A program made the position numbers and the translations under genes. The notes below the pieces were generated by a model. It saw only the letters and a list, made by a program, of their open reading frames with translations. It did not search any database and was not told where the DNA came from. A stretch of DNA of 64,000 nucleotides from positions 16,722 through 80,721 of the IMG/VR virus record IMGVR_UViG_3300037962_000450. One strand, written 5' to 3'. Below, in pieces: positions 1-59,482 of the stretch. Origin of the DNA: a virus. Lineage: Duplodnaviria; Caudoviricetes. Position 1 is the stretch's first letter. Every line of letters starts with the position of its first letter.

Positions 1-311
1 TTGCAAAAGGTCAATTCATTCTTATAAAGCCTGTCCTCGTCCACATCGTATTCGATGCTTTCGTTGGCTTCCCATTGTTGGCGATACTTCTCGCATCGCT
101 CTGCTTTCGCAGCCTTGTCAAGCTGGTGTTGACTTGGTTGCGTTGCTTCGCTGTGCATCGCCTCAAGTTCTGCGAGGGTACGCACACCGTCACGATTGTT
201 GCGGTATTCTTCCGGCAACAGGTGGTTCGGGACTTCGATACACTCCATGACCGCATCACGGAGTTCTGCGAGGAGTTTGCCGCCAACAGTGTTTGAAAAT
301 TCGTAACTCAT
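1..311 (-). CDS. Early hypothetical protein, partial (MSYEFSNTVGGKLLAELRDAV..., runs off the left edge)
   Basis: ATG at 311 follows RBS GAAAGGGAAA and promoter 352-380; the frame is open to the window edge. Not in the ORF track. Confidence 0.75.
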   Translation of the reverse strand, partial: MSYEFSNTVGGKLLAELRDAVMECIEVPNHLLPEEYRNNRDGVRTLAELEAMHSEATQPSQHQLDKAAKAERCEKYRQQWEANESIEYDVDEDRLYKNELTFC

Positions 312-351
312 AGTAGTTTCCCTTTCGTGGAATTGTCTTTCGTATGATTCT

Positions 352-380
352 ATTTTACCATACGCTGGTATATATGTCAA
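352..380 (-). promoter_or_regulatory. Early sigma70-type promoter
   Basis: TTGACA(380-375)-17 bp-TAAAAT(357-352), with TG extended -10. Confidence 0.85.
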
Positions 381-389
381 GCGAAATCG

Positions 390-500
390 TTATTTTTTCT
401 GAAGTTTTTTCAGCCGGTTGTGGTCTTGAATCTCGCTGTAAGCAGTCAAGAACAGGGGCGATAGAATCCAAGTCAGAATGAGAGCAGTTGTAATATCCAT
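390..500 (-). CDS. 36-aa single-TM membrane peptide (MDITTALILTWILSPLFLTAYSEIQDHNRLKKLQKK)
   Basis: Own promoter (526-554) and RBS GAAAGGAAAATC; hydrophobic N-terminus and basic tail. Confidence 0.7.
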   Translation of the reverse strand: MDITTALILTWILSPLFLTAYSEIQDHNRLKKLQKK

Positions 501-525
501 GATTTTCCTTTCGTGTTATGCCACC

Positions 526-554
526 ATTATACCATAATTATCGGCATTTGTCAA
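526..554 (-). promoter_or_regulatory. Early sigma70-type promoter
   Basis: Perfect TTGACA-17-TATAAT with TG extended -10. Confidence 0.9.
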
Positions 555-630
555 GGGGTGTCTCCACATTTTCTCGAAAAAAAATCAAAAAAATCCCCGC
601 CGTTTTTTGCCTGCCCCCCAGCGGGGTGGA

Positions 631-897
631 TCAGAATTCGTTATGCAGGTCACAGTCCCACACGTACATGTCGGCAGGCTCATCGTAGGCATCCTCCCAC
701 ATCTCACCGTTGTACGGATCATCGTCGTCGTACAGGTTGTCGGAACGCATCCCTTCCTCCCACGCGATGGCTTCCTCTGTCCACTCGTACTGTTCGGCCT
801 CCCATTCGGCCTGTGCCGCAAGAAGCTCCTCACGAGCTTCATACTGAGCGCATTCGGACAGTTCAACAGAAGTGATTTTTTCAAAGTGGTTACTCAT
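631..897 (-). CDS. Highly acidic early protein (DNA-mimic candidate)
   Basis: 88 aa with 28 D/E versus 3 K/R, W/Y-rich; RBS GAAAGGAAA and promoter 936-964. Confidence 0.75.
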   Translation of the reverse strand: MSNHFEKITSVELSECAQYEAREELLAAQAEWEAEQYEWTEEAIAWEEGMRSDNLYDDDDPYNGEMWEDAYDEPADMYVWDCDLHNEF

Positions 898-935
898 AGC
901 AATTTCCTTTCGAGGAGTGAACTTGTTATGCCTAC

Positions 936-964
936 ATTATAACATAAAGCAGGCCGGTTGTCAA
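936..964 (-). promoter_or_regulatory. Early sigma70-type promoter
   Basis: Perfect TTGACA-17-TATAAT with TG extended -10. Confidence 0.9.
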
Positions 965-2658: not shown

Positions 2659-2686
2659 TTCATTTCCTTTCGATTAAGATAACCCC

Positions 2687-2715: not shown

Positions 2716-2816
2716 GTAAAATCCAGTCTAATCTCTCATTTTGTGGAAAATAAACAAAGTTTTCTCTTACTGAGACTGAATCTCAAAAGCTAAAAATGCC
2801 CGGCCTTTTTTGTCGC

Positions 2817-3215: not shown

Positions 3216-3253
3216 TCTGAAACCTCCAAAAGTGATTGACTTGTGATACGGGT

Positions 3254-3282
3254 ATTGTATCATATATATCGACACATTGCAA
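3254..3282 (-). promoter_or_regulatory. Early sigma70-type promoter
   Basis: TTGCAA-17-TACAAT with a CGATA spacer motif. Confidence 0.65.
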
Positions 3283-3387
3283 GCCCAGCAGCCAGTTATT
3301 TAGGGAAAGTTCTCAAAAAAAAAGAAAAACGCGGGGCGTTTTTTGCCCGCCTTCCCCCCTGTGTCCCTGCGCCCTGTAAGGGATTGG

Positions 3388-27626: not shown

Positions 27627-30600
27627 ATGCCTTCAAAAATAGTAGTCCTATCAGATAGGATAAAAGAGCTAAGCCAAACTACAGGCACCACTAATATGCA
27701 CTTAGAAGGTGCAGCTAATGGCTTTAGCGCCTTTAGGGACTTCTATAGTCATGGCGACTTGGTGTATTACGCTGTAACTGACGGAACCTACTACGAGGTA
27801 GGCTCTGGTGAAGTACAGTTATCACCCACAGTTTCCAATGACCAGATATCCCGCTTCCCCTTTAGAGCTAAAGGTCCGGGAGTTACGGTCCAGACAGATA
27901 AAGTTTCTTGGCCCATAGGCGTCAAAGAAGTCTATGTAACCTACCCAGCCCCGAAATCTGTTTATACAGCATTTGGTTTATCCCCTGATTACAATATGCC
28001 CGCAGAAAGCGGTTTCGCCTTCTGGTCCTCATCTAATATCCTTAACTATGATTCTAATATCTTATGGGACTCGGGCAATGCCCGCATGGGCATAAGCACA
28101 ATTTCGCCTGACCACGCAATTCATGTGGGTGGTAACACGGCGTATTCTATAGTAAAGGCTTCTGGTTTTGTTGCCAGCGAGTCAGGACTCTTCTTTCCTG
28201 AAGGCAATGGTGGAACGGCGTCTTACAGTGGTGGTCGCCAACTAGAACACTTTGTCAGAAACAAGCTTGATGACACAGCCTTGAGCGAAGGTAAAATTGG
28301 AGCTTCAACAGGATCTTCCGCAGTCATACAACTTAGCGGTGTAGTAGATCAATATATACTACTTAAGCAGCAATCTAAAGGAGCCTTTCTTTCTGGCCCA
28401 CCTAACGGTTGTGGTGTCGATTGCTCCCCGGATTACCCAACCTTTAGAGCTATTACTGTAGAAGATATCCCAAGTTTATCTAGCCTTTACCTAGACAGAA
28501 TAGGCACACCCGCTTCCGGGAATGTAGCATTCTGGAAACAAGACGATCCGACTCAAGACCCAAGGGTTGGTTACGACTCAAATCTATTCTTTGACGATAC
28601 AAACAACAGACTTGGAGTAAATACAGGTACTCCTGCCTACAGACTGCATGTAGATGGAAACGCCGGGATTACTAGCGATGTGTCCATAGGTGGTAATATT
28701 GTCGTCAGTGGAAACCTAGACATTAAAGGCGACACAACATATGTCAACAGTACGGTTGTAACCATTGCTGACAAGGTTATTGAATTAGCATCAATGAGCG
28801 GTAATGCTATCGCTACAGACGCCCAGCTCGAAGCTGCTGGAGGGGCCGGAATATCTGTCCAGTCAAGCGATTCAGACAAGTCAATCCTCTGGAGATCCAA
28901 CTGTGACGCTTGGCAATTCAAGAGTAACACTGGCGGAGGAATTTACTACAACGCTATTGATGTCAGTGGCGTTGTTTTTGGTGGCGACTGCACAAACGTA
29001 ATTAGCGGCTCATATCAAGCCGGTAGCGGACTCTCCTTACACAGTGGGAGAGAGTTTAATATTGGCAACATGTTCAGCATAGGAACAAACCCTTCCCAGA
29101 GTGTACATCAAGCTGATACAATTTGGGTAAGCGGAGTTTCTGGCGTTGCAACAACAATAAATAAGGTTGGCGCTAACCATGTGGTATGGGTAGATCCCAC
29201 AGAACTATCTGGAATACTTAGCGGAGGATCAGCCTCCAGTCTGCTGGACGTTTCCGGTATTCTAGATAACTACATCGACAAAGTTTCTGGAGAGTATACA
29301 CAGGCCTCTGGTGCATTAAACAATCAATTTGTTTCAGGTTCCGGCGCACTGAATAATCAATTTGTTTCAGGTTCCGGCGCATTGAACAACCAGTTTGTTT
29401 CAGGTTCTGGAGCGCTGAATAATCAATTTGTTTCAGGTTCTGGAGCGCTAGACAATTATATTGACTTCGTTTCCGGCGAACTGAATACTATATCAGGTGT
29501 TCTAGATAATTATATTGATAAAGTATCGGGTGAATACGCATCAGCTTCTGGAGCGCTTAATAATAAAATTGATGCCAGCATAGGAACTGTGTCTGTAGGT
29601 GAACTCGGTACAACCACACACCACGCAGGAGTGTCGGGGCTTTGGTTCACTAATGGCAAAGTCGATATGGTAGACTCAAACAGGATGGCAAAAATTACCA
29701 TAGACGCAGATGCCGCTGGAGCCTTAGACGACCTAAGTGACGTTACTATAACAAGCGCCGCAGACAAACACATCCTGCAATACAGCTCCACTTCATCCAA
29801 ATTCGTGAATGTCCTCTCCCCTTCCGGTGCTCTAAACAATGATATAGAGACTGTTTCTGGGGCCTTGGTTAACTTTGTGAATACTGAGCACGCATCAGGC
29901 GTGAGTATGTCTGGGGTTAACTGGGGAGTTGCCGCATTCGCTTCGGGCCAAGTACTATCAGTATCTGGTTCACTGCAAAACAGTATAAACACAAACGCTA
30001 CTGACATTACAACAGCGTCTGGAGCATTGGCGGGGCTTATAAATACAGAACACGCTTCAGGCGTTTCCATGTCTGGAGCCTTAGATAATTACATAGACTT
30101 TGTTTCTGGAGAACTTAATTCCGCATCTGGCTCCCTCAGCAATGCCATCTCAGCATCCTTCCAAATCAAGGTTAGTGAATTTGATGGTAGCGTAGCTCCT
30201 GATGGAGACTCATCACTAGAGTCAGTCTCTGGACTTTACTTTACTAACGGGGCTGTAACCAAAAAAGATTCTGGAAAGATAGCGGAGATAAACCTATCTG
30301 CCGGAGCTGCCGGAGACCTAAATGGTCTAACAGACACAAACATAACATCTGTTGCAGACAAACAAATCCTTAGATATGACTCTGGCACATCCAAATGGAT
30401 AAACGACACCTCTCCATCTGGAAGCTTGAAAAATGCTATTGATGTAAATGCCACAGATATCGACACCGCTTCTGGAGCCTTGGTTGATCTAATAAACACT
30501 GAGCACGCTTCAGGTGTTTCTATGTCTGGCGTTAACTGGGGCGTGGCAGCTTTTGCTTCTGGCCAAGTTCTGTCAGCATCAGGTTCATTGCAGAACTCAA

Positions 30601-39705: not shown

Positions 39706-42700
39706 ATGTCAAGGTTTGTACTTACAGCACAACTACAACTTCAAGCCCCACGGAACGTCGGTTCTGTTGTGAGGCAAATGCAATCTCAGCTTAGCGATAT
39801 TAAAGTTAAGGTGAGCTTGGATGGAGCTTCACGCACATCATCAGATCTAAACAAGATCAACAAAGATGTTAAGAAAGTCACCGATTCTGCCAGCAGAATG
39901 GGTAAGGCTTTCGCCGTTTCCGTTAAGAGGTTTGCAGCATTTTCAATTGCCACTAGAACAGTTAGTTTATTTACTAACGTTATAGGCGGTGCTGTAGAAG
40001 AAGCTATAAATTTTGAAAGACAATTAGTTAAAGTATCTCAAGTTACTGGAAAATCTCTATCCCAGTTAAAGGATCTTACTAGGGAGATCACAAGACTCTC
40101 CACTTCTCTAGGTGTGAGTTCTAGGTCTTTGATTGAAGTTTCTAGGACACTATCTCAAGCCGGTCTTGATGCTCAACAAACCAAGGTCGCCCTAGAAGCC
40201 CTAGCTAAGACATCCCTCGCCCCAACGTTTGAAGATATCACAGAGACAGCAGAGGGCGCTGTCGCTATCTTCAATCAGTTCGGACAGGGAGCTGAAGCTT
40301 TAGAGAAGCAGCTTGGCGCTATCAATGCTGTTGCCGGAAGATTCGCTGTTGAAGCCGGTGACTTAATATCTACCATCAGGCGTACCGGTGGTGTCTTTAA
40401 AGCCGCAGGTGGTAATCTCAATGAGCTGATTGCTCTATTCACATCTGTAAGAGCCACCACGCGAGAGGCTGCTGAAAGTATTGCTACCGGTCTCCGTACT
40501 ATCTTCACTAGAATACAGAGGCCTTCTACCATTAAGTTCCTAAGAGAGCTTGGTGTTGAACTTTTAAACGCAGAAGGTAAATTCGTTGGCCCGTTTGAAG
40601 CGGTTAAAAGATTAAGCGAGGCTCTTAGCGATATTCAGCCCGGAGATATCAGGTTTGTGCAGATAGCTGAACAGCTTGGTGGTTTCCGTCAAATCGGTAA
40701 AGTGATTCCTATGATACAGCAGTTTGCTGTAGCTCAGGAAGCGTTGAAGGTTGCCATGGATGGGCAGGACTCCTTAGCTCAGGATGCCATAAGCGCCCAG
40801 CAAGCGTTGGCAGTCAGGATAACTAAAGTTAAGGAGGAATTCTTAGCATTAGTAAGGGCGGTGAGTGAGAGTGCAACCTTCCAGCTCATGGCCAATACAG
40901 CCCTATCTCTAGCGTCTGCCCTGATTAAGATTGCCGACGCGCTCAAGCCTCTACTTCCTATGCTTACGCTCATGGCGGGCATAAAGATATTTAGTGGGCT
41001 AAAGAGTTTTGCCGGTGGTATAATGGGCAGAGGCGCTGCTACTCCACAAAAGTTTGCAACCGGCGGTGTGGTTCCGGGCAGTGGTAATAGAGATACCGTT
41101 CCCGCCATGTTAACCCCCGGCGAGTTTGTTATCAGAAAGTCTAGCGTAAAGAAAATCGGCGCAGACAATCTACAGAGAATGAATGATGGTGGAGTGGTTC
41201 TTAAAGGTACGTTAGCAGACGAATCTATGGGTATATTTGCCCTCACAAGAAACAGAAAAGATACGGAAGGAGATCTTTCCGTTAAAGACGATTGGGGTTC
41301 GTTCTCTATTACCAATAAGAAGGGCGGCATAACAGCGCTTAACTCCAACTTTAGTCTTGGCCTGTCAAACACTGGCGATAAATTTGCGGCTTTTAAGAAT
41401 CTTAACGGCGATGAACAACAGCGAGTATTAGGGCAAACAAAGGCTGGCCGAAAACTTCTTAAAACGCTTAACGACGGTTACCCGACCATGAATGCCGACA
41501 GCGCAGTCATAGGTACGGCGTCGAAGAGGGCATTTGGAGATGACGCCGAAGGTCGTGAGACTGCGCAACGTAGCGTAACGGCTGCTCTCCAAGACGTCCA
41601 AGTTCCCGGTTCTGACATACCTGCCTCAGCTATGTTAAGCATATCGGGAACGCAGAAGCAAATGCTGATTGGGCAGGCTCCCAATGACCCTAGTGACAGT
41701 TCGGGCTTGGTTGAAGCTGTTAGACAGCAGGTATATGCAAAATCTTCAGAAAAGCTAAAGGAAGCAGTTACAGAGTTAATTGATTCAGATTCTGGTACTA
41801 TTGCGAAATTAAAAGCTGGCGTAAAGCCAACTATAACATTTAACCAAGGGGCTTTTGATAAACACATAAGCTCCCTCATAAAAAACGAAAAAGGTGCTTA
41901 CTCACAGGCTGTTAAGGGTATAGCCGGTTTCGTGCAGGAGGGATTGATAGCTGGCGTAACCGGGGCAACGCTTGGTGGCGGGGGGACATCTTTTGACTTC
42001 CCGGATGTGTCAGCTCAGCAATCCCAATTATCGTCTCTCTACGGTGGCGACTTCTCAAACATGGAGAGTGGTGACGCAAAACCAACGGCTGCGCTTGACG
42101 AATTTAGAGCAAACGCAAAGAAACTAGCGGACTCAATTGCAAGCAATACCGATAACCGGTTTACAGAAAAAAGTAAACTTCTGGCTCGTGTAGAAAGAAT
42201 GGCTACCGGTGGAGCTGTTTCAGATACAGTTCCCGCTCTCCTCACACCCGGAGAGTTTGTTGTTAACAGAAGTTCTGCTCGGAGGATTGGCTACGGTAAT
42301 CTCCATAGAATGAACACTAAGGGAGTTCAAGGGTTTGCTTCCGGTGGAATAGTTGGAGGCCCAAGAACATTTGCTAATGGTGGTAGTGTTGCTACTCAAA
42401 ACGCCACTCTTAGAACCGAAGAACTACAGATGTTTATGATGCAGATTGGCGCAGCAGCGATTGCAGCTTCGACGGCGGCAGAGGCTATAGCATCCCACGC
42501 AGCAGAGAGCGACGAAAGCGCTGAGATGATAAGGGAGTTAGGTACCCGTGCATCGGCAGCTATTTCTACATTTGGAGCAATTAGTGTTGGGCTTGACCAG
42601 TGGCAAAACAAGATGGCTGCGGCTGGAGATGTTGCTCTAGAATCCGGTGAGGCGTGGGCAATAGCCGCACAAGCCGCAGGAAAAAGCGTAGAAGAAATAG

Positions 42701-45700
42701 GCTCGATGGCTAAGCGGGGCGGGGCGACTGACAAGGAACGGGACGCCAGAGCGCAATTAGCCCATTTAGGTGGAAAAAAGGCTGATGAGCAAATAGCCAA
42801 GAGGGGGCAAAAGAAATTTGACAAGCTCAGCAGACAGGACGAAAAGCTTGGTACACAAGAAGACGAAAAAAAAGCACAGGTACAAAAACGAGAGAAACAG
42901 ATTGGAAAGATTGAGGGGAAGATAAAAAAGAAGAGACAACGACGTAATGAAAACGAAGGCCGAAGAGAGGAGCTTCGTGTTGCAAAGGTACCTTTAAAGC
43001 AAGAACTAGACGAAAGGGAAGCAAAGGCAACACAACTAGACAAGGAAATTACGGGTACGCGACACGAAATCAAAGGTAGGACTCAAGCCAAGGAAAAGGC
43101 TGATCAAACCGTGGCGGACACATTCCAGAGAGGTCAGGAGATTGCTACTGAGCTGGAAGATCGCGACAAGAAAACAGAGGGCTTAGAAAAATCAAGAGTC
43201 AAAAAAGAAAAAGAAGTAGATAGAAACAGACAGGGTGTGACTCGGGCTGTTGAAGCTACACAGACTGCTAGGGAAGAGTTCCAACTAGACAGAGAACAAA
43301 GTAAACACATAAAAATGTCAGCCCCGCCGATGGCTAACGTTGGAGGACAATTCCGATCCAGAACTCCAGAAGAGCAGTCAGAGCTAGATGATGCAAAGGG
43401 AAGGCTGGAAAGACTACAACAAGGTCTACCGGCAGATGGGGGTGCTGTTGGCGGTGGTGGCACCGTTGCTCAGATGCAGGTTCAGGCTCAGCAGGTAATC
43501 ATACAGGCCCAGTCTGTTACGATGACAGAGGGTGATGTCAATGTTCCTGTAGTGAAAGACGAAAAGGCAATTGCTGCTGCTGAAGCTGATGTCGCATCCC
43601 TTAGCGGCCCAAGAAGACACGAAGCCGGTGCTGTTAGTACAACTAAAACGAGGGATCTAAACAAGGGAGAAATAGAAGCGCTGGGTGTGCAGCATGAAAA
43701 GGTTAAGACGCTCAAGCAGAATATTGCGTCAGGCGGTCCACTACTACCTTCTACCCCGGAAGAAGAAGCGGCTGTATCTGGCAAAGTTGCTGACGAACAA
43801 GCTGCCGTTGACGCTCTAGCAAAAAGCCGCCAACAACTTAATAGTATTATAGAACAGCAAGCTCAGACTCAAGAAGAGATACGACAGTTGAGCCTAGAAG
43901 GTCTAGAAGTTACCGAGGCCAATAGAGAAGCCCATCACGAGTCTTGGAAGCAGGCTGTTGCACTTAAAGATGCTAAGTCAGAACTTTTACATCTCACCAA
44001 CGAGGAAAAATTAAACAATGAACAGATCCATGATCTTACCGGTCAAATAGCAGAGATAGATGGGGAACGCAGGCAGCTTATCTCTGAAAGCATGAAGCTG
44101 ACTTCTGAGATGAAAGACCTAAGAGAAGAAGAAGCCTTTGCTGCAAAAGAGGTTGAAGAAATCAACAAACAAATTCTAGAGATTGAAAAACAGAGAAAAG
44201 CTGTCCAAGACCAAATGGAAGGAGGGCCTGAAGGTCAGGCGATACAGCATCGGGCATCAATGGTTGCCAGCGCCGCCAGTGCAGCGGTGGGGGGTGGCGA
44301 TGCAGGTGATGCAGCGGCTGAAAAGGTGACTTCTGGTATGGAACGCATTAAGGCCGCTTCTGATGGTCTTGCGGATCAATTCGGTTCTCAAGAGAAATTC
44401 CTCAAAGCCTACTCAACTGAGCTTTCGAGAGGAGTCCCAGCAGGAAAAGCTTTCAACAGGGCTATGAGTCAGGCCGGTGTGAGCGCAAGCGGTACTGCCA
44501 AGAAGACTGGCAAGCTTCGTTCTGCAATGTCTCAAGCAGCAAGTAAGATTAGAGGAGCTGGAGGCAAAATCTCTGGTGCTTTCTCTAAGTTAAATGCTAA
44601 GATGGCCGGTATGGGCAAGGCGGTTGGCGCTGTAATGGCTGTGGGTCAGCAGGCTGTTGCGTTTGTACAAGACTTACAGCAGAAACAGTTCGACAAAGCG
44701 CTGGAACAAGGCGACACAGCTACCGCTGAGGGCATGATTGGCGATATGGGTAAGATGGATATGGTTGGGGGAGCCATGAGCGGTGCTATGGCTGGCGCAG
44801 CCATGGGAGCTATGTTCGGCCCACTCGGAGCAGCTATTGGTGGACTAGTAGGTCTCTTAGGAGGTCTTGCTATGGCTTTCTTAGGCTTCGAGGCTAAATT
44901 TAAAGAGAGAGAAAAGAAGGTAGCCGCCGTAGAGATGAAGAAGGCGAAAGAGGCTACCGGTAAAGCGATGACAGATATATCTGAGAAGGGGCTAACGTCT
45001 AGTTCTGTGAAGGATGCTACAGCCGCCATTGACGCTCAGGGCGCTGCAATGAACAAGAAGTCCAAGCTGGACGGAAAGATGTTGCACTCAGATGAAGAAC
45101 GTAAGAAGATGGGTGAAGAAATTGCCGCCCAAGAGTTACAGCTAGCAAGCGCTATAGGTTCCAGAGCAACTTCTGAGAAAGAACTCGAAGAAGCCATGGA
45201 AGGACTGCTTAATAATACGACAGGTAACGCCAAGGCTGAGATGGATGCGGCACGATCTGCATTTGCTGTAGCTCAAGCAAACAGGGCGCTAGCAAAGGCA
45301 AACGCTGACCTACTTAAGATTACCTCTGCATTCAATGCCGCAACCAACGCTGTGAGTAATTTTGTCAAAGGTTTGGAAACTGGAACTAATAGATTTGATA
45401 GCATAGTTACAGACCTAGAAGAATCCCAGAAGAATATCGCTCTTGGTAAGGGTGGTGTTCAGGCTGTCGATAAAGCTAGAAGCGCAACAATGGAAGGTCT
45501 TAAAAGAGCAGGTCTTGATGAAACATCAGAGCTTGGCAAGTCTGTTGCCAGATCGTTTGACCAGCAAGAAAAAGCCGCAGAGTTCATGGCTAATATGCCT
45601 CGCAAACTAGACTCAATGAACTTTACTCAGGGAGACGATGCCGCTACAGTAAGAGATAAGCTGAGATCAGAGCTTATCACAGCCGACATGTCTGGCCCAA

Positions 45701-47316
45701 TGAAAGATATCGTTGAAGGCCAGCTAGCTAAGCTTACCGACAAGCAGCTACAAGCCGTTGCAAGCGGCGAGATGGATATCTCTGAATTGCTGCAAGGCAT
45801 GGGTAAAGACATTAGCAAGCTTGGTGCAGGAGCATTGGCAGCAGCTAAAGCCATGCAAGCTCATGAGCAGGCAATGATAGGCCTTACGCAGAAGAGAATA
45901 GCAGCCGAGAAAAATCTTATCAGCGCACAGATGCAGGCTGTAGATGTCTTTATGGAAGCAGCCGACATACTTGCTCAGGTTGGTGGAGAAGCCGTTACTC
46001 CAGAAATGCGAACACAGGCAACCCTTGAAAAAGCAAACATAGCTGGAAGGGGCTTAGGTTTATCAGACCTTAAAACCGGAAGCGCCGAAGAGCTTCGCCA
46101 AAGAACTAATGAGATTATGCAGGAGTTTGGCAAGCAGGAAATTAAAGGCAGAACTCCGGGAGAATTTGCGGGAGCAGAGGGACTTGACGCAGACAAGCGT
46201 GCCGAACTACAAAAAGCAATGCAAGATCAGATTGCTCTCCACAGAGATCTCATCAAGAACAAGATGGAAGAACTCAAGATTCTTGAGAAAAAGAATGCCC
46301 TCGAAAAAGAATCTCTAGAAGCCGCCCTCAAGGGTGACATGGAAACATTCCTTAAGAAGCAGGCCGCTGCCGGAGCTACCGCAGCAGCAGCAACTGGCGA
46401 TCAAAGGCTAATGAGAATGTTCGGCGCAGACGCTGTTGGCGAAGCGTTTAGCAATGTCCAGAAAATGCAGCAGGAAGGCGTGCAAGACGTAGAGGGCATG
46501 AATATAGATCAAGTCAAGGCTACCTTGGCGGCAACAGGTCTGGCAATGAGAGGCCTTGGCGATGATCCTAGAATGACAGACCTTCTTGCTGGTCAGATGC
46601 CTGAGCAGGAAAGGTTGAAGGGTGAAATCGGAGAGCTGGCTATGGGTATGTCCGATACAGCCCAAGCCGCAACAGAGCTTGCCGAGATGCAGGTTCAGAC
46701 TGCAAACATGAACATCGCTCAAGCAAACCTCACCTTCCAGAAAACCTTAGAGCACGGAGATGCCCAGTTCAGAAGATGGGGAGGTCCAATATATGCCAAC
46801 AGAGGAATGTTTATTCCTAGGGGAACAGATACTGTTCCGGCAATGCTTACACCGGGAGAATTCGTTGTAAGAAAGGAAAGCGTCAACAGGGGTAATAACC
46901 TGCAAATGCTGAAAGCCATTAATCAAGGTTCTTATACAGCAGGGTTCAGCGGGGCTGTTCAAGGCGTTCAAAGGCTGGCACGCGGAGGTAGAGTACAGTA
47001 TCTTCAGGAAGGCGGCGTTGCTGCTGCCGCAGGAGCAGGTGTCGGGATAGACCCAGCACTTGTCAGTCAATTAGCGGCAAGTCTGGATAGATTCAATTCT
47101 GAACTTTCGTCCAATATAGCTTCCCTGCAAAACATGAAGTTCCAGATCAAACTTGATACTACAAACCTGAACGTAAACCTAAACGGAACAAGCTTCCTCG
47201 CCCAACTCAAAGACAGCTTAAAGCAGGAATTGCTGGCAGAAGTTGGAAACAGGATAAAAGATCTCAAGTTCAACAACGCTGGAGAACCTCAAACCAGCAG
47301 CAGTGTACTAGGATAG
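39706..47316 (+). CDS. Tape measure protein (2536 aa)
   Basis: TP901-like TMP core (FERQLVKVSQVTG...INAVAGRFAV...GLRTIFTRI), Ala/Glu/Lys-rich helices, three DTVPA(M/L)LTPGEFV modules. Confidence 0.92.
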   Translation: MSRFVLTAQLQLQAPRNVGSVVRQMQSQLSDIKVKVSLDGASRTSSDLNKINKDVKKVTDSASRMGKAFAVSVKRFAAFSIATRTVSLFTNVIGGAVEEAINFERQLVKVSQVTGKSLSQLKDLTREITRLSTSLGVSSRSLIEVSRTLSQAGLDAQQTKVALEALAKTSLAPTFEDITETAEGAVAIFNQFGQGAEALEKQLGAINAVAGRFAVEAGDLISTIRRTGGVFKAAGGNLNELIALFTSVRATTREAAESIATGLRTIFTRIQRPSTIKFLRELGVELLNAEGKFVGPFEAVKRLSEALSDIQPGDIRFVQIAEQLGGFRQIGKVIPMIQQFAVAQEALKVAMDGQDSLAQDAISAQQALAVRITKVKEEFLALVRAVSESATFQLMANTALSLASALIKIADALKPLLPMLTLMAGIKIFSGLKSFAGGIMGRGAATPQKFATGGVVPGSGNRDTVPAMLTPGEFVIRKSSVKKIGADNLQRMNDGGVVLKGTLADESMGIFALTRNRKDTEGDLSVKDDWGSFSITNKKGGITALNSNFSLGLSNTGDKFAAFKNLNGDEQQRVLGQTKAGRKLLKTLNDGYPTMNADSAVIGTASKRAFGDDAEGRETAQRSVTAALQDVQVPGSDIPASAMLSISGTQKQMLIGQAPNDPSDSSGLVEAVRQQVYAKSSEKLKEAVTELIDSDSGTIAKLKAGVKPTITFNQGAFDKHISSLIKNEKGAYSQAVKGIAGFVQEGLIAGVTGATLGGGGTSFDFPDVSAQQSQLSSLYGGDFSNMESGDAKPTAALDEFRANAKKLADSIASNTDNRFTEKSKLLARVERMATGGAVSDTVPALLTPGEFVVNRSSARRIGYGNLHRMNTKGVQGFASGGIVGGPRTFANGGSVATQNATLRTEELQMFMMQIGAAAIAASTAAEAIASHAAESDESAEMIRELGTRASAAISTFGAISVGLDQWQNKMAAAGDVALESGEAWAIAAQAAGKSVEEIGSMAKRGGATDKERDARAQLAHLGGKKADEQIAKRGQKKFDKLSRQDEKLGTQEDEKKAQVQKREKQIGKIEGKIKKKRQRRNENEGRREELRVAKVPLKQELDEREAKATQLDKEITGTRHEIKGRTQAKEKADQTVADTFQRGQEIATELEDRDKKTEGLEKSRVKKEKEVDRNRQGVTRAVEATQTAREEFQLDREQSKHIKMSAPPMANVGGQFRSRTPEEQSELDDAKGRLERLQQGLPADGGAVGGGGTVAQMQVQAQQVIIQAQSVTMTEGDVNVPVVKDEKAIAAAEADVASLSGPRRHEAGAVSTTKTRDLNKGEIEALGVQHEKVKTLKQNIASGGPLLPSTPEEEAAVSGKVADEQAAVDALAKSRQQLNSIIEQQAQTQEEIRQLSLEGLEVTEANREAHHESWKQAVALKDAKSELLHLTNEEKLNNEQIHDLTGQIAEIDGERRQLISESMKLTSEMKDLREEEAFAAKEVEEINKQILEIEKQRKAVQDQMEGGPEGQAIQHRASMVASAASAAVGGGDAGDAAAEKVTSGMERIKAASDGLADQFGSQEKFLKAYSTELSRGVPAGKAFNRAMSQAGVSASGTAKKTGKLRSAMSQAASKIRGAGGKISGAFSKLNAKMAGMGKAVGAVMAVGQQAVAFVQDLQQKQFDKALEQGDTATAEGMIGDMGKMDMVGGAMSGAMAGAAMGAMFGPLGAAIGGLVGLLGGLAMAFLGFEAKFKEREKKVAAVEMKKAKEATGKAMTDISEKGLTSSSVKDATAAIDAQGAAMNKKSKLDGKMLHSDEERKKMGEEIAAQELQLASAIGSRATSEKELEEAMEGLLNNTTGNAKAEMDAARSAFAVAQANRALAKANADLLKITSAFNAATNAVSNFVKGLETGTNRFDSIVTDLEESQKNIALGKGGVQAVDKARSATMEGLKRAGLDETSELGKSVARSFDQQEKAAEFMANMPRKLDSMNFTQGDDAATVRDKLRSELITADMSGPMKDIVEGQLAKLTDKQLQAVASGEMDISELLQGMGKDISKLGAGALAAAKAMQAHEQAMIGLTQKRIAAEKNLISAQMQAVDVFMEAADILAQVGGEAVTPEMRTQATLEKANIAGRGLGLSDLKTGSAEELRQRTNEIMQEFGKQEIKGRTPGEFAGAEGLDADKRAELQKAMQDQIALHRDLIKNKMEELKILEKKNALEKESLEAALKGDMETFLKKQAAAGATAAAATGDQRLMRMFGADAVGEAFSNVQKMQQEGVQDVEGMNIDQVKATLAATGLAMRGLGDDPRMTDLLAGQMPEQERLKGEIGELAMGMSDTAQAATELAEMQVQTANMNIAQANLTFQKTLEHGDAQFRRWGGPIYANRGMFIPRGTDTVPAMLTPGEFVVRKESVNRGNNLQMLKAINQGSYTAGFSGAVQGVQRLARGGRVQYLQEGGVAAAAGAGVGIDPALVSQLAASLDRFNSELSSNIASLQNMKFQIKLDTTNLNVNLNGTSFLAQLKDSLKQELLAEVGNRIKDLKFNNAGEPQTSSSVLG

Positions 47317-47326
47317 GGGTAGGATA

Positions 47327-50300
47327 ATGTCGATAGAGTGTCTTTGCGTAAAGCGCGGTAAGGCTTCTATAACCTCACACGGTGGGGTTATTAAGGCTAA
47401 GATATCCTGTGCCCCTGCATGCGTCACCGGCAAGATGAAAGGCTCCGCCTCTATCAAGGCTGGCAATCGCAGAGAAAGAAATGGCTCTGCTAAGATTACA
47501 GCCGAAGCCACAATTACTGGTGGTCAGGGTGTAGAATCCTACAAGATACCAAGAACAGAGAAGCCTAGAATTGGACTACAAGCTTGGCTTGGTGGAAGGT
47601 GGACTCCTCCAGATATCGACTCAGACCAATGGACGCCTCCCCAGTTTAAGCAAATCTACGGTCAAGATTTTGTACACCTAGGTAAAAAGCTTAACCATGT
47701 CGGAGAGGGAGTCTTGACTCCGGGCCTTAACGTTATATATGGCCTTAAAAGAAATATCAGCGCTGGAACAACTCTACGTTCTCCCTACACAGATAAGTTT
47801 GCTGGAGATTTCAGCGACTTTGGCTGTGCCCATAAGCTGTACCCCATAAAGGATATAGATAATAGCTGGGATGGCGGATACATCGTTGATGAAACCAACG
47901 ATAGCGGAAACCTCTATCAAAGCGTAAATGAGGGTTTGTTTACCGGTAGCTATCATACAAACTTCGGGCAAAGCTTAAGGCTTTCAGATGACCGCAATAC
48001 ATTCATTCAGCCTTCAGCGGTATACACTGATGGCACCTTTAGATATAAGTTTGAAGTTACCAACCCTTCACACACAGCCAAGGATAGCAGGCTGTACCTA
48101 AGAGCCTCAGCCCCAAGACACAATTACTCCTCAGACACTCCTCCTAGGTATAAGATACAGGACATCAAGTTTGAAGATCCGTCAGGAAACTTGATAATCA
48201 AATATGAGGATATCATTCTTAGGGGTGACTCGGACTATAGTAGCTATAAGTATGTGAACTTTGCTACATACGGATCAAAACCTCAGAAGAACAACCTCCT
48301 CCTCCACACTTGGCAGTCTGGCTATCCTTATATGGAAGAGGGTTCTGGTTATACCGTCAGTTTTGAGATAGATGTTGAGTGTCTGGACGATCCATTTGAC
48401 CCCGGTTTTGGTATAGGTTTTCAGGAGAGCTGTGAACTTCTTGACGCTGAAGTTCCTCATTCCGATAATGATTATCTAGCCCTTGATGGTTCTCCTCTAG
48501 CAACCCAAACTCAGCGGCTATCGTATCTAAACCCCACGAACACTATAAGAATCTCAGCCATAGAAATCTGTAATAGTGGAGGGTTTGAGACTCTCAGGGA
48601 AAATTACCTACCAATACACTTTGGCGTTCAAGCTAGCGGAAGAAGAATTGAACAATGCATACTTCCAAAGCTGATGCCAACATATGGATACGGAGCAGAT
48701 AGTATCTATCCAGCAGCCAGTAGCGTATGGAGAGATGCTAACGGAACTCTAACAAATCAAAGCGGTGTAGGCGCGGGCCACCTCACATCTCTCGTAGCGA
48801 ATGAAAGTAGAATCCATGCTATAACAATGGACTCTACTAGCCCAGTAGCAGATTCAGGGAAGTTGTTCCTTGAATTTAGATCTACGCCTCCCAAACAAAC
48901 TACTGACTGGAGGGGTGGAGACTTTGATATAGGTTATCTAACCAATGACTTTAATGTAGCAAGACAGACCACCTTTACGCCGGAAGACCACACGTTTGAG
49001 GTCGATGAAATACGACTAGACATCCTAGCTAAAAAGAAAGTTGGCAGTCGAGATTATGCTTTGGATGTTGTCGGATGGAGTGACGACAAGCTCTTAAACG
49101 TTACATCTAGCGTTGGAGGATTCTTGCAGAACAGGTCTGGTGGTAACAACTTTGATCCCATCTCTTCAGGCTTTAATGTCACGGATGAGTTAGCCCTTGG
49201 TGGCGAAGCCTTGTCCGACAAGCATCAATACTACAAGACTAGTGGAACCAACAATGACGGCGGAGACCACTACATCTTAACAAACACGCCTCTCGTGACA
49301 AGTACCGCCTTCCAATGGTACGAAATACCGTTAAAAATATACGAAGACACGGTAGAGGTTGGAAAGTCCCCAGCCTACAACCAAAGCTCATTTTTTGAAA
49401 AATTGTTCCTAGACATATTTCCATTTCCTAGCGGTGCTACTATTGCCGCCGCCAAGCTTTGCGTTAAGTATAAGCCTCAGAACAGTATCAATCTGCATAC
49501 CCTCGGGTATGAGAAGATGCATAGAATAAATAATATAAGGGCCGAATCTAAAATACGCCCATCTGTCAGATCTTCTACGGATGATATCCTAAACGCCGGT
49601 TCCGGGTTATCCAGCCTGTCGGCCATATCTAACATACCCCATGCCTACAAAACTCCTGACGACATAAAGTCTAACTACTCTAGGAGATGGAGGGGTATTG
49701 AGGGAATAGTTCAGGGTCCGTTTGACCCAGATGAATTCAACTTTGGATTTAATAACCCGCTTCTTGACTACCCGTTCTTATCGGGATTCTACAACTTCTC
49801 AAACAATAGCTATGATCTAGGCATAGCTATAAACTCTGTACCGCTAGGTTCTGGTTTCGGCAACACCAGCGGTATTATGAATACAACCTATGACGAATAT
49901 TTATTCCAAAATATAGGCTGGAGATTCAATGATAGCGGAATATTCTCTCAGCAGTTACCCGGACTTAGTAGCTCCTACAGAACCACAGACTGGACATCTC
50001 TAAGTAATGGTTCGTTTGACTTTACGGCAGATCCTCTTTACGGGAATATTGCAGACGCCTTTGATAGAGCCATCAGAGTCTCAGGAAGCAACTCGTATGT
50101 AGACTTTGGTCACATAGATACAACTAGCGGTTTTTCAATATACACAAGATTCACACCAGACGCAAACGTTAGCGGAGTAGGGTACAACCTCTTTGAGTCT
50201 GGAGTTATATTCTCCAAGTGGGATGCGTCTAAAGACTTAGACTTCGCTCTTGGTTATGAAGGCGGATATCTATGTGGATACGCTAAGGATATAGATGACA

Positions 50301-53300
50301 ATATAATTAAGGTTAAGGATACTATAAAATATAGTGCTTACCAGTACCCGCTGTCAGTCATTCTAACATACAATGACCACCAGTCAAGCGGTCTTAAATT
50401 ATATACTGACAACGAAATACACTCAGGAGTATTTAATACTAAAAGAGCTGAATCTAGCGCATTCTATAAAAAATCAGGCGACAGCAAGCTGATTCTAGGT
50501 AACTCGTTTGGTTCCGGTGTCGGCATGAATATGTTTGTGACAGAATTTGGAATCGGAACGTGGCATGATTCTGAAGCCGGTTCTGGTTGTCATATAGTCG
50601 AATCCTCCCCAGACCTCACTGTCAAAGAAGTCACAGCGGATAATTTCCTCAGAGGTAACAGGGTTAAATTCTGGGCTTCAGGAGAACCAGCCTCCAACGA
50701 TAGATACGGTCTGTGGGACTACGTAAATGAAGATACCCTAGACTGGGATCTTGGAGCGTTTAAGGTCTGTGAGTTCAGTCCAGACTTTGACTTCTTTACT
50801 AAGAGGGTCGGAAGAGACCTTATCTCAACAAGGCTCATTCACGACGGATCGGGGTATACACAGAGGGTTAACCTCACTGTTCCTGCTTCTGTCAATCATT
50901 CAGGTCTGGCATACCACACTCAGATAGAAAATGACTTCTTAAGATTTAATCTTTCAGACGCATCCGACAACTTCTATACCGCCAATCACCCAAGAATTAC
51001 CAAAGACTTACCTCGTGGCTATAAGTTTGCGGACAGAGCATTCGTTGTCGAGACAATTCTGGAACACGAGACTCAAGACTTAATTTCTTGGCCGGATGGT
51101 AACTTAGGTCCGAAGCTGATAGTTAGCCTGTACACAAAGAACCAAGAGCCAGTTTCCTACCCGACAGAAAACTGGGGTCTTATCAATAGGGATATACATT
51201 ATCTCAAACCTTCTGGTTGCTGGAGGAGGATTGATAGCACGTTTACTTACGATAACTTCTTTGATGAATCTGAGGCTTGGGCGCTATTCCCATATGAAAG
51301 AAGGTTAACAGAGTTCAATAAGAAGTACTACTCGCAAGATGTCAATGATATGTTCTTGCAGTACGACTTGGTGTATCCTTCAGGAAGCGCGTTTGATTCT
51401 AGGATTAACATCCACAGCGCTCACGTAAGACTGGAAGATGCTTTTGTTAGTCCGACTCAAATGTCAGGAGAGGTTCCGTTAACTGTAAGTGGAGAACTAA
51501 GGCCTAGAGAAGTTCTTCCGATGCACTCTATCTCCATATGCCAGATAAGCAACAGGGAGTCAGGAGTTAGCGTTTGTGAAGATATACTTAGAGGATCAAT
51601 ACCAAGCGGTTTGTGTCTGTACACAGAAGGGCCGTTTTATGTAGATAATCTAACCACATCTAGTGGTATGGTTATGTATACCTCTGGAAATATTTGGAGT
51701 AGCGGAAACTCATCCTTGGCTCTATTGGCTTCTGGAAAATCTTTAGGGTCAGTAGGCGGAGCCGGATCGGATGGCGGCATTGATGATGATTTTGTAGGCC
51801 TTAATCTTTACGTTAGCGGAATGTTAAAAACTAATGAGCAGCTACCGCTATCTCTCCTGAATGACCAGACAACAATAACTTACCCCTACCCAACCCTAAA
51901 CCTAAACACACATGCGTCTCAAGAATCACGAAGAGGATCTTTTGGTTACGTTCCTCTATACCTCAAACAGCACGAAGACATCAAAGAGACTTCCAGCGGA
52001 ACTAATCTTAACTTGTTCACCTCCGCTATTGGTATCACATCACAAGGATTCTCTCAAGGTTTTATAGGCCTAATAACAGCAGCCCCCCAGACAGTATCTG
52101 GAACAGCGCTTAATCTAACTCTATACAACCAAGTCAATCTGATTCCAAATGTAAGTAGTGGTAACTTTAGCCTACATACCACAACTCATGGGGCTGGCAA
52201 TACAGCCGAGCTAATGAGATGGAGTAAGTACAACTATGGTCATGAAATAACCATAGACGACAATAGCTTTGCCACACTGGATGCTGATGATGAAATTAGG
52301 GGCGTTGATTTAATTTGTTCAGCAGCCTGTGACGCAAGCGGCACACCAAACAAGTGTAACGAGAAAGAGATCTTCACACACAACGTCGTCTGGAGGGATA
52401 GTAACTGTGTAGACGGAGGTATCTTTAGACCAAGAGCAACTTACACAAACCTGAGCACACAAGGGTTTAATACAGACGTTGGATATAGCGGCCACTTCTA
52501 CGGAATCAGAAAATACACAAACCTAGCTCCAAACTCTCCATATTACCTTACCATGAAGGGTACTACGGGAAGCACAAAGACTATCCCTGTAGGAAGAGAT
52601 TTTGAAGAGTGGGAATATGGATCGGTAGATGATGTTCAATTCTCAGGCAATAAGTTTATCGCAGACTACCCATACATGAGTGGGCAAAAATCCTTAACCG
52701 CCCCGTCAGGCAGAACTTCTGGCGATTGGTACGGCAAGTCAGTTGCACTAACATCAGACATAATGGTAGTTGGAGCACCGCTACACGAATTTGACGAGAT
52801 GGGCGGAACCACCTACTTCGACTCTGGCAACAACAGGCTAGAATGGATAGGCGCAAGCGGTCTGTACGAAGCTGGAGCAATGTTCCTGTACAGAAGAGGT
52901 GAACAGCCACAATCTCCCAACATGCACCCAAGCGGACACAAAGCTCCATGGACACTGGAATCCAAGATCGTGCTTCCGTCAGCATACAGAGGCGATTGGT
53001 TCCATACACACCCGGATGTTTTCTCGGTTGGTGGGATGCCCGCTCTACCTGTAAGGCAGTGGCACATAGGGCAAGAAGGCAGAAGGTTGGGTCACTCTAT
53101 TGGAGTTGGATCAACATCCAACAACCCATCCCTAGGGGAAGATAAAAGGGAGATTGTTGTAGCAGGTGCTCCTAGAGGTCATTGGGACAGAAAGTTTGAC
53201 AACGTTGTTACTACGCCAATTAAGATTGCGGTAATGGTTTTCTCAGACGAGTTTGTATATAACGAGAAGAAAGCCGCTACTATCCTAGCAAAGCAGAACA

Positions 53301-56300
53301 AGCTTAACGAAATCTTTAAGTACTACTCCGCCGATCCAAGAAGCCTAGAAATAAATGTTCTTATATACGAGCCGACAGGGGTTGCGTCTCCAAATTCAGA
53401 TATAACCACCAAAACTGCACCTTGGATACACCACGACCAAATTCCAAGAAACACGTATTCTCACGGGGTGGTGAACAACACACTTTCCGTACAAAGCGGA
53501 ATTACAGAGCTGTTCCACAGAGCTTTCCCATATGATGCATCACTACCACTTAATGGTCTGCCACCTATTGTTGGCTTCTATGTTGATGATAGCAGATCTT
53601 TAGGCCGGGAGGAAGTGGAACCCGCAATAGACAACTTCGTTAATTACTATAAATGGTATAGCCATGCTAGTGGTGTACAAGATGTTTACGGAACAGTAGA
53701 TTCTGGTCATATATACGAATATAAACCAAGCAGAGGGGCTGCTGAAGATTGGCTGTGGATGTCAAACACATTGGTGGACAACCTTCTTGATAGCGGAAGA
53801 CTGATCGAAGACAACGGGTTAAGGTTTATTACAAGTGGCGTAGGACCAGAGTTCCAAAATCCAAACCTCACAGAATTCAACAGACCTCCCGCTAGTGGTG
53901 GTAGAGCGTATATCTTTGAAAAAGAAAGCGGCGTATGGAATCTTATCCAAGAGATATCTAGGAAGCAACTGGTTAAAGAGCTTGATATCGGCGGTGGTAC
54001 CACTGGTGAAGGAGATCCTTTCTACGATGATGCAGCGCACTACGAATATGATTCCTTTGGACATGCGGTTGCTATCAGTGAGAATACTGAAGTCATATCA
54101 ATAGGTTCTCCATATAGCAATGAGGCTTGTGTTGTATTTGAACACGACCCAAGTGAGAAAGATAGACTTTACAGGCACTTGCCCCTATGGTTGAGATTTA
54201 AAAAATCCACTGATACCCACTATGAGACCATATATAGTAGGTGGGAAGTATACCAAAGAAGCCTTGGTGATACAGAAGCATCAAAGAAAATCTATCTCGA
54301 ATTAACGCCAAGTGACAAGTTCACACTTAGAAGCGACCCTGTGTACTGGGATAGTATCAAAAGTGACCCAATTAGAGAGTACAGAAAGGTATATCAGTAT
54401 AATTACTCAAACATAGGGCACCGAGGTACTTGGCAGTTTATTCCTAGTATCTACGCCCCAACATCAAGACTGGGTTGGAGTACCGCCGTAAGCGAAGATG
54501 GAGACACTGTAATATTTGGCGCTCCTACAGACAGCTTTAATGAGTTTGATGACACAAACGTTTACTATAAACCAAACAACACTTGGGCTTCCTATGTGAA
54601 CGCTGGAGCGGTGAGAGTGTTTGAGTCTAGAAAATACCATCCACACTCCGGTGTCGTAGAGTTTTACAAGTTTGGAAATCTTGATGAGAGCCGAAGAGCT
54701 ATTGCAGATAGAGGTGAAGATTACAGCGACATCAAGCACACCTTTGAAACCCAAGGCATTCCGTTCAGGAGAACCGGCTTCTCAGAAGTAGAGATACCAA
54801 AGAGTGCTGGGTTGGCATTTATTATAACGCCGGAGATAGATGCTGCTAGCGATGAAGTTATAGAGAACATTAAAGATTGGCTCGCTCTGGGAGACAGGAC
54901 GCTTGTTCTAGTAGGCAATGACCCGGAATGGGAAGGTAATGGAGCTTACAAGCAGTCTAATGAAGTAGTGAACAAAATCCTATCCAAGCTATCTTCTAGA
55001 ATGAGAATACATCCGGCAAGAAATGAATTCGAGTCATTGCCCGGATGCGCCCCTTCAGGCAAGCCTAATATACTTCCTTCGTTCAGACCTACCGGGGGTA
55101 GGCTGACAAGTGTCAAGACTCCTAAAATGTTTGGTAAGGGCGTGGGTGATATACGCATGCACATCCCAACATGGTCAAAATTAAATTCCCCTTGTGATGA
55201 TCTCAATGACAAGTGCGAGCTTCCTCTTGACAGGTATGGAGACCTCAGAGCTGAATGGCAAAGCGAATGTACAACCAACACTCCGAAATGTGACAGGAGT
55301 GTCAAATATAAAACTAACTGGCCTCTGCATTTTGGTACAGTTCCTTGGCCTTGCGACACCCAATGTACCCCTGACCCAAGAGCAATGATAGGTCCAAACG
55401 AAGAGCCTAAACCTCTCCTCGTTGCTGCGGAAGAGGTTCCAGAGAAGGTTACTATATATCCAGCTTGGGAAGAGTGCTGGACGGAAACTATATACTGTAG
55501 AAAGTGGGTTAATGACGCGCCCCTAGTCACTTGGAAATTTGGAGACCCAGTAGGCGATGTCCAATTTGCTTGGAGTGAGAAAGATACTAACTATACATCA
55601 TCTGACAGAGCTAAGTACATAGATCCGCCTGAGTACGAAGATAGAGACGGACTCATAATGGCAGAAGCCTCGTCTAAAGACGACGATCCGCCTATTAGGT
55701 CGCAAGAAGATGTGTATCCAGATTCAACTATCGTGGCAAAAGAAGACTGGGCTGGAAACAATACATCTAAAGTTGTAATGATTGCAGGAGTAACATCCGA
55801 GTCAGAAGGAAACTTGATACAGGGTTCCTATGACTACAACATATCCTTCTATCTAAACTTGGTAGGGAAAGGCTGTAATTCAGTACATCTTAAAAAGGGA
55901 AGTATTGTCCAACTGGGAGGTTGGACTAAGAGGTCTAGCTTCAGGGACGCTTACAAAGCCTCCTGCTTGGGATCATACACAACCAGTGACGGAAAAGAAA
56001 GTAATGGCATATTCAGGCAATACGGAAATGTGCTCATTGAAAACTTCATGGTTGAGGAGACAGAAAGAGAAGGAAAGGGCATTGACGACGTTCACAATGT
56101 ATGTTGGATAGCTAATGCAAAAGATATTCCATCCGTAGAAGATATTAAAGATATCAAGGAGTGGATGGATAAAGGTAATAAAACACTGGTCATTACTTAT
56201 GCAAATTCTATGCCTTGTGGTGTGTCTGATGAAGCTTGCCCAGACCCGGAAACAGCCGTAGATTTGGATTATGTTCCGCCTAGCCAAAAATACGCTAGGG

Positions 56301-59482: not shown

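Follow-up and report, generated by a model that had tools for sequence, protein, structure and literature searches.

The stretch of viral DNA analysed here (the window) comprises 64,000 nucleotides (nt), positions 16,722 to 80,721 of IMGVR_UViG_3300037962_000450, an 80.7-kb IMG/VR viral record of the Caudoviricetes whose completeness is estimated at ~48%. At 47327..59482 it carries an open reading frame (ORF) of 4,051 codons, open throughout, that encodes a giant protein of 4,051 amino acids (aa); this gene and all of its features described below lie on the plus strand. The gene begins 10 nt downstream of the end of a gene whose 2,536-aa product matches seven tape-measure families of the PHROG database, and its TAA stop codon shares bases with the start ATG of a 611-aa gene that follows. 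It is therefore found directly downstream of the tape measure, the position characteristic of siphovirus tail-tip genes. We think it probable that the product is a giant distal tail protein that combines a putative seven-bladed propeller, a concentric nest of inserted domains and a putative glycan-binding head, and that it belongs to a widespread lineage of uncultured marine phages. Such a protein would consist of an N-terminal module (N-module) and a C-terminal module (C-module) built on seven FG-GAP blades, each module ending in the same type of Ser-Gly/Leu array.

The seven FG-GAP blades of the C-module were correctly recognised in the initial annotation of the sequence: their motifs lie at nt 52727-58754, to which one blade is added, giving a span of ~6.2 kb. 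The first propeller segment (52637..54676) holds blades 1-4, with FG motifs at aa 1801, 1920, 2243 and 2381, and the second (57962..58996) holds blades 5-7, with FG motifs at aa 3562, 3684 and 3810, both segments being delimited by Pfam FG-GAP_2, the motif itself and hhalign. FG-GAP_2 (PF14312) matches the protein over five stretches with 84.8 bits against a cut-off of 23, and gave five matches in the genome search. The family profiles of the seven blades all match mutually in hhalign, with a best E value per blade between 1e-13 and 1e-8, although some pairs that involve blade 4 are weak. Successive FG motifs are spaced by 119, 323, 138, 1181, 122 and 126 aa, and this spacing places an insert of ~1,100 aa between blades 4 and 5, as had been annotated, and a second insert of ~210 aa in blade 2. 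The latter (aa 1976-2185; 53252..53881; moderately conserved, at 40%) lies between the GAP strand and GGRAYIFEKESGVWNLIQEI. The stretch between blades 3 and 4 also exceeds one blade in length. A cryptic eighth blade in aa 1975-2240 was considered and rejected, as only a beta3-beta4-like piece at aa 2192-2211 matched (E 2.4e-5), which is read as the rest of blade 2. One clade of 51 sequences has a cysteine at aa 2206 (53942-53944, in the strand FNC(V/I)QEI) that co-occurs with a cysteine at aa 3558 (57998-58000, in SGC(P/L)GD just upstream of blade 5; phi 0.95). Because this pair shows only 2-3 changes on the tree it carries no weight, and it may reflect shared ancestry; if real, it would link both propeller segments at an unexpected place.

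The large insert between blades 4 and 5 would be organised in four levels, each placed within the one before. The outermost would be a GIFT domain (GldG/IFT52-type, GATase1-like) in two halves ~770 aa apart. Its N-half (aa 2441-2575; 54647..55051), placed by AlphaFold model 1 and VIA-align, carries the motif IITPEIDAASDEV followed by TLVLVG and has C2574 at its end; its C-half (aa 3331-3405; 57317..57541), placed by the same model and by co-variation with C2574, reads PVVAAEE...NIVLISDSS...C3375...NRDFIYSLY. The second level would be formed by a Cys-rich segment (aa 2576-2699; 55052..55423), with conserved C2623, C2630, C2648 and C2676, and by a two-armed stalk that is probably disulfide-stapled in some lineages, this phage having two Cys pairs. 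The ascending arm A (aa 2700-2735; 55424..55531) contains VPEKVTIYPAWEEC..C, with C2717 and C2724, and the descending arm B (aa 3245-3282; 57059..57172) contains C..CKIHPEKREVIPA, with C3259 and C3265; each arm is supported by a Cys count equal to that of the other, and the bracketing strands noted earlier are located at aa 2704-2724 and 3259-3277. A jelly-roll resembling carbohydrate-binding modules (CBMs), itself discontinuous, would make up the third level, with its first strands at aa 2736-2810 (55532..55756; AlphaFold model 2, VIA-align) and its remainder at aa 3066-3244 (56522..57058; the same evidence and Foldseek). Innermost would lie a GIFT-like alpha-beta domain (aa 2811-3065; 55757..56521) in circularly permuted order, with C2850 and C3040, to which hhalign, weak Pfam matches in relatives and Cys co-variation all point; its strand-helix unit KVVMIAG...NISFYLNLV comes first and WIANAKD...KTLVITY second.

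The outermost level was examined in AlphaFold model 1, which covers aa 2441-3560, was built from a 58-sequence alignment and has a mean predicted local distance difference test score (pLDDT) of 80; the regions that form the outer GIFT halves are mostly at pLDDT ~80-97. When the Foldseek matches of this model were re-aligned with VIA-align, the top match was the GIFT domain of IFT52 (5fmr_A), with a Z score of 16.0 and a root mean square deviation of 3.2 A, aligned over 202 of 242 residues and spanning model residues 1..964. Behind it, at Z 10-13 and all over the range 1..964, come ThuA-like, STM1381, OST48 and GH42 mid-domains. The N-half alone offers at most 125 residues, and the IFT52 match must therefore also use the C-half (model residues 895-964); because the match needs both halves, the outer domain is discontinuous, with its halves ~770 aa apart. 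The three-layer alpha-beta fold of the GIFT/GATase1-like class is thus found in the outer copy. At the level of sequence, DUF4350 matches it at aa 2473-2565 below threshold (E 0.0026; 18.5 bits against a cut-off of 30.4), and a GIFT fold of the outer domain is supported by the model, even though its sequence scores below the Pfam cut-offs.

The inner parts were modelled separately. AlphaFold model 2 (aa 2736-3290; pLDDT 87.5, predicted template modelling score 0.69) folds confidently without the outer GIFT halves. Jelly-roll matches of model 1 span residues 303..804 and include CBM61, CBM35, CBM36, the Eph ligand-binding domain and Cry toxin domains; for model 2, a search independent of Foldseek gave matches of CBM type only, among them CBM6, CBM61, CBM35 and CBM36, together with C. 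difficile RBD1, at Z 9-9.7, and Foldseek agrees. These CBM matches cover model 2 residues 8..508 and so flank the inner alpha-beta unit on both sides. The alignments take in 118-135 residues against whole CBMs at Z 9-9.7, to be read against an aligner background of 7-8 and without membership of any of these families by sequence. Among viral models, the jelly-roll resembles parts of phage receptor-binding and tail-fibre proteins. A PDB sequence-profile search with the insert gave nothing usable. Jelly-roll and inner unit are supported, by the model, as one self-contained inner module, for which the co-variation of C2850 with C3040 is only suggestive.

The initial annotation had drawn attention to two alpha-beta motifs, which do lie at aa 2499 (nt 54821) and aa 2927 (nt 56105), and had taken them to be copies of one another. 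Profile comparison bears out this relationship: the outer N-half (aa ~2471-2560) matches aa ~2894-3005 of the inner unit with an hhalign probability of 94-96%, at E 1.2e-7 with 58 sequences and E 1.7e-9 with 232, the controls giving E >= 0.18. The relationship is visible only by profile comparison, BLASTP comparison of the insert, and likewise of the entire protein, with itself having found no internal repeat. The assignment of both units to the GIFT/DUF4350 fold class is also supported, for the inner one tentatively, through the IFT52 GIFT match on the outer copy and through weak Pfam matches in relatives, whose inner segments match DUF4350 (5 of 58), ABC_transp_aux, DUF4159 and IFT52_GIFT; the best of these has E 9.5e-4, and the inner copy of this phage's own protein has no GIFT-type Pfam match. 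For the C-unit of the outer domain (aa 3335-3366, PVVAAEE...NIVLIS), the best-scoring counterpart is aa 2795-2820 (STIVAKE...KVVMIA), upstream of the inner N-half. These hhalign matches give the order N, C', N', C, which alone fits a tandem or a nested arrangement alike. We began from the former, two GIFT-like units standing side by side, in which each N-half pairs with the next C-unit and there is neither nesting nor permutation, and this order is indeed co-linear with a plain tandem duplication. Such an arrangement is now improbable, given that the IFT52 alignment covers 202 residues spread over model positions 1..964, that a confident fold of the inner unit is predicted in the absence of the outer halves, and that the cysteine pairs described below are concentric. 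It was dropped on the strength of the VIA-align range and of this cysteine co-variation. Nested topology requires the C-terminal unit to come first in the inner copy, and its order would therefore be permuted. The nest may have originated in an old tandem duplication, after which the outer halves came to fold together and the middle, a C-unit followed by an N-unit, became the permuted copy.

Co-variation of cysteines was analysed in 232 non-identical insert sequences, on a tree built without the tested columns. The numbers of cysteines in arm A (aa 2700-2735) and arm B (aa 3245-3282) are equal in 232 of 232 sequences (0/0 in 144, 1/1 in 63, 2/2 in 24 and 3/3 in one), with at least 26 changes on the tree and agreement in 19 of 19 independent pairs (p 3.8e-6). 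C2574, at the end of the outer N-half, and C3375, in the outer C-half, are both present in 140 sequences and both absent in 89, with three mismatches; 17-19 changes were counted on the tree, and ~10 of 11 independent pairs agree (p ~0.002). For C2850, which follows the helix of the permuted C-unit, and C3040, at the end of the inner domain, the corresponding figures are 134, 97 and a single mismatch, with 5-6 changes and agreement in 5 of 5 independent pairs (p 0.06). No association is seen in cross-pair controls, for example 2574 with 2850. The three pairs are arranged concentrically, with 2574-3375 enclosing arm A-arm B, which in turn encloses 2850-3040. This is predicted by nested topology and not by side-by-side tandem units, and so supports nesting. 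Sequence co-variation makes the C2574-C3375 pairing well supported and the C2850-C3040 pairing suggestive. Taken with the AlphaFold models, it indicates that the outer GIFT halves, and likewise the stalk arms, pair in three dimensions. The nested, "Russian-doll" arrangement first proposed from the sequence is thereby supported, as is its disulfide-stapled stalk. The four arm cysteines of this phage, C2717, C2724, C3259 and C3265, are lineage-specific, occurring at their exact columns in 2-5% of relatives, and are best regarded as the form that a repeatedly gained and lost disulfide takes in one lineage. C2623, C2630, C2648, C2676, C3290 and C3328 are present in at least 90% of relatives. Within the region 55193-55357 (aa 2623-2677), the variable Cys sites 2648-2651 and 2674-2677 also co-vary (phi 0.88), which suggests a further disulfide cluster at the stalk base.

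The giant protein belongs to a large family. A word-indexed search found 303 related proteins of 2,228-7,090 aa, the best 120 of which share 38-94% identity and for the most part measure 3,700-5,400 aa; they derive from metagenomes that include Tara Oceans viral-fraction samples, on contigs of up to 180 kb. No homologue of the gene was found by megablast and tblastn in 50,697 GenBank phage records, nor was a description of the family found in the phage records or in the papers searched on FG-GAP phage tails and on DUF4350 in phages. The initial annotation had suggested that the nested module was recently acquired by an older propeller protein. Two features could be taken to favour this: Ser-Gly dipeptides in the insert are at expectation while those of the flanks are ~3-fold enriched, and the inner parts of the insert are far less conserved than the flanks. 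However, all of the best 120 homologues are covered by BLAST over the whole of aa 2480-3540, except one that ends inside the insert. Among ~235 IMG/VR loci, collected as three seed sets drawn largely from overlapping contigs (insert 75, N-module 80, blades 5-7 80), the insert is present in all but contig-end truncations, and blades 4 and 5 are 2.9-3.6 kb apart in every locus. An HMMER profile of the insert matched only 188 proteins among 1.84 billion representatives; the matches listed are of family size (full-length or a split C-module) or are fragments, the full-length ones match end to end, and no free-standing or differently placed copy is among them. No orthologue lacking the insert was thus found in any of these three collections; all relatives whose sequence suffices for a verdict, down to ~25% identity, have the whole insert at this site. 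Furthermore, GC content is flat across the giant gene, and the module has no homologue outside the family among the 1.84 billion representatives. A recent acquisition is accordingly contradicted by these comparisons and is very improbable; on sequence evidence, the nest appears to be as old as the family and universal in those relatives with enough sequence.

Conservation, expressed as mean identity to the query by region, is highest in blade 4 (72%) and in the outer GIFT N-half (60%), followed by the N-module (52%), blades 5-7 (50%) and the outer GIFT C-half (49%). Blade 4 and the outer GIFT halves thus rank among the most conserved parts of the protein, which again argues against late arrival of the insert, while the arms, jelly-roll and inner alpha-beta unit show only 24-31%. 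The innermost parts evolve fastest, which is what one would predict for a host-binding tip; presumably they are also the most distal. The Ser-Gly contrast on which the initial annotation drew holds in part. The flanks are indeed rich, with 80 Ser-Gly in the rest of the protein against 27.9 expected from composition, but the insert (aa 2441-3540), described as poor with ~6, has 9 against 6.9 expected.

The remainder of the protein is divided by its repeats and by gene splits in relatives. The N-module (aa 150-1400; 47774..51526) ends in a Ser-Gly/Leu short-repeat array (aa 1401-1640; 51527..52246) of SGLxLYTSG-like units, homologous by hhalign (97%, E 2.5e-11) to repeats at the C-terminus. The latter follow a small conserved beta region (aa 3891-3960; region and repeats together 58997..59479), occupy 59207-59479 and run to a conserved ...RIRGK end, the extreme C-terminus ...LNLRIRGK being nearly invariant. 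The shared array could be a docking or oligomerisation element. Between the N-module array and the first blade lies a Cys junction (aa 1641-1700; 52247..52426) with invariant C1668 and C1694, which is the point of gene splitting in some relatives. In one clade (L026, at 7700-7745, L027, L028, L034, L036, L056 and L070) the giant is encoded by two ORFs with an ATGA stop/start overlap at query aa ~1670 (52328-52370), inside a conserved Cys motif: the N-protein ends ...ICYGDC(Q/K)* and the C-protein begins M..KC.E...C.DGG. The cysteines that flank this split may together make a site at which the two chains are held to one another. In a second clade (L052, L053 and L064) the gene is divided near query aa 1370-1540. 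As some relatives encode two coupled ORFs, the giant protein can be regarded as two modules. Length differences in the family were also seen at the N-terminus. Precomputed Pfam matches of longer relatives (4,800-5,600 aa; P0054, P0072, P0085, P0102 and P0115) show extra N-terminal domains of RCC1-type, Calx-beta, cadherin-like, Big_9 and Laminin_G_3 families, and five loci (L007, L011, L014, L068 and L074) have N-terminal extensions of ~860-1,000 aa. Since longer relatives add such domains there, the N-terminus appears to be the variable, adhesin-decorated end.

The genomic setting bears on where in the virion the giant protein is placed. The large terminase gene lies at 9980-11986 and is followed by head genes; its product shares just 26% identity with terminases of the Bacillus phage Basilisk type. 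The structural module also contains other giant ORFs, at 17915-23290 (1,791 aa) and 27627-33587 (1,986 aa), and the tape-measure gene at 39706-47316. By the rule of thumb of ~0.15 nm of tail per tape-measure residue, the 2,536-aa tape measure would imply a tail several hundred nm long. The structural module yielded no recognisable sheath gene, the PHROG search returned nothing for five neighbouring genes, and the Pfam search nothing in nine. The order 347-aa gene, 299-aa gene, tape measure, giant gene and 611-aa gene is kept in ~75 of 79 loci. Instead of a receptor-binding tip, the protein might be a baseplate scaffold, an ejection protein or some other part of the virion or of what it ejects, whose gene simply happens to follow that of the tape measure. 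Consistent with this are the absence of homology to Dit, Tal, gpJ or any PHROG, an N-module without a recognised fold, and the presence of other giant ORFs (1,791 and 1,986 aa) in the same structural module; Dit/Tal (gp27-like) homology was looked for by PHROG search (E <= 0.01) and by comparing the N-module profile with PDB sequences. We nevertheless consider it unlikely, in view of the conserved gene position, after the tape measure and ahead of further tail genes, of the repeatedly gained disulfides and lectin-type folds, which suit an exposed extracellular part, of the Calx-beta, cadherin-like and RCC1-type domains of adhesin type that longer relatives add, and of a gradient of variability that suits host recognition. 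A role as a tail-tip multi-adhesin is plausible, on the basis of the conserved position after the tape measure and of the lectin-like folds. For the N-module, the sole fold lead is a language-model indication of a ConA/Laminin_G_3-like lectin.

It may also be asked whether the nest is a head that binds glycans or an enzyme that degrades or modifies them, for example a capsule-clearing depolymerase. GATase1-like folds include hydrolases, GH42 and GH5 are among the structural matches at Z ~10, CBMs usually accompany glycoside hydrolases, and the jelly-roll matches include an enzyme domain of a tailspike (CBA120 TSP4). Against this, Pfam and PDB sequence searches found no catalytic family, although no search aimed at a Cys-His-Glu triad was made, and the best matches, IFT52, OST48 and STM1381, are non-catalytic GIFT or ThuA-like proteins. 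An enzymatic nest therefore has a low probability. We favour a putative propeller that would serve as a rigid platform for a fast-evolving, lectin-like head, and this head would bind a host surface glycan at the tail tip, in the way that integrin alpha chains display an inserted I-domain.

Several points weigh against the nested, glycan-binding tail-tip protein that we propose. The packing of the domains was read from alignment ranges and DSSP secondary-structure strings. The jelly-roll, at Z ~9.5, lies just modestly over the aligner background of 7-8, and for the inner alpha-beta unit VIA-align and Foldseek searches with model 2 gave no GATase1/GIFT structural match in the top 50 (Z < 7.8). 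The match between the outer C-unit and its inner counterpart is weak, with E 0.005-0.01 against 0.055-0.6 for the controls. The permuted inner copy of the initial annotation, with the C-terminal strand-helix unit coming first, is supported by the nested topology, but its sequence support is weak (E 0.005). At the level of the whole protein, the PHROG search (E <= 0.01) assigned 0 families to the giant, and the N-module is without Pfam, PHROG or PDB sequence match; because of these negative results, location in the virion is deduced solely from gene order.

Seven FG-GAP repeats, and an alpha-beta domain of ligand-binding type that loops out between propeller blades and has the propeller as its platform, are features that the giant protein would share with integrin alpha chains that carry an alphaI (vWA) domain. 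There are, however, clear differences. The alphaI domain is inserted between blades 2 and 3, whereas the insert of the giant lies between blades 4 and 5, with a second one inside blade 2; the integrin insert is a vWA domain with a metal-ion-dependent adhesion site, whereas that of the giant is GIFT/GATase1-like and itself a four-level nest. No Pfam match to vWA or integrin families was obtained in the giant protein at E <= 1. Integrin alpha chains have DxDxDG calcium loops, but no such motif (D.[DN].[DN]G) occurs in the whole giant protein, which also lacks thigh and calf domains, a membrane anchor and a beta-subunit partner. The likeness is best viewed as an analogy of design and not as family membership.

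GIFT domains (GldG, IFT52, OST48/Wbp1) are given as proposed sugar-binding domains in a passage of PMC7226087 that cites Beatson and Ponting (2004). The giant protein resembles the Pfam families of this group (DUF4350, ABC_transp_aux, IFT52_GIFT) in the fold of its outer domain and in weak sequence matches for both copies. Its outer copy differs in the ~770-aa interruption and in scores below the Pfam cut-offs, and its inner copy in the permuted order and in having no structural match. Moreover, known GIFT domains occur in the partner of an ATP-binding cassette transporter or in intraflagellar-transport or oligosaccharyltransferase subunits, whereas the giant is a phage protein. In its putative CBM-like jelly-roll, carried by a probable structural tail protein whose gene follows the tape measure, the giant is comparable to CBM-decorated phage tail proteins such as Streptococcus phage O1205 ORF45, the receptor-binding protein of Bacillus phage pW4 and a Cellulophaga phage tail fibre. 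The likeness is one of fold (Foldseek E 1e-4 to 1e-2; CBM6, 35, 36 and 61 at Z ~9), without sequence homology; the giant is 4-10 times larger, and its jelly-roll, unlike theirs, is split by another domain and lies inside a GIFT domain inside a putative propeller. In lactococcal phages, 'evolved' Dit and Tal proteins carry CBMs as insertions. Circular permutation is explained by a model of duplication followed by truncation, drawn from DNA methyltransferases and swaposins. In the giant the elements run N-C-N-C and the middle C+N would make up a permuted domain, which is the intermediate that this model postulates. In contrast to the model, nothing is truncated in the giant, the outer N...C halves fold canonically around the permuted domain, and stalk and jelly-roll are additionally intercalated.

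The most specific form of our interpretation, which we put forward tentatively, is that the insert is a preserved intermediate of circular permutation by duplication, with stalk arms and a jelly-roll intercalated and with disulfides gained or lost in matched pairs at least 26 times, and that it serves as the glycan-recognition head on an integrin-like propeller in a globally distributed lineage of uncultured marine phages. This lineage is abundant in ocean viromes, where hundreds of variants were found, and no cultured phage in the collection searched has a homologue. If true, the protein would be an unusually clear natural case of multi-level domain nesting, with canonical and permuted products of duplication in one chain, and it would offer specific, directly testable disulfide predictions. 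The integrin design principle, a propeller that displays an inserted binding domain, would have been reached independently in phage tails, and the fastest-evolving innermost module would be the place to seek determinants of host range.

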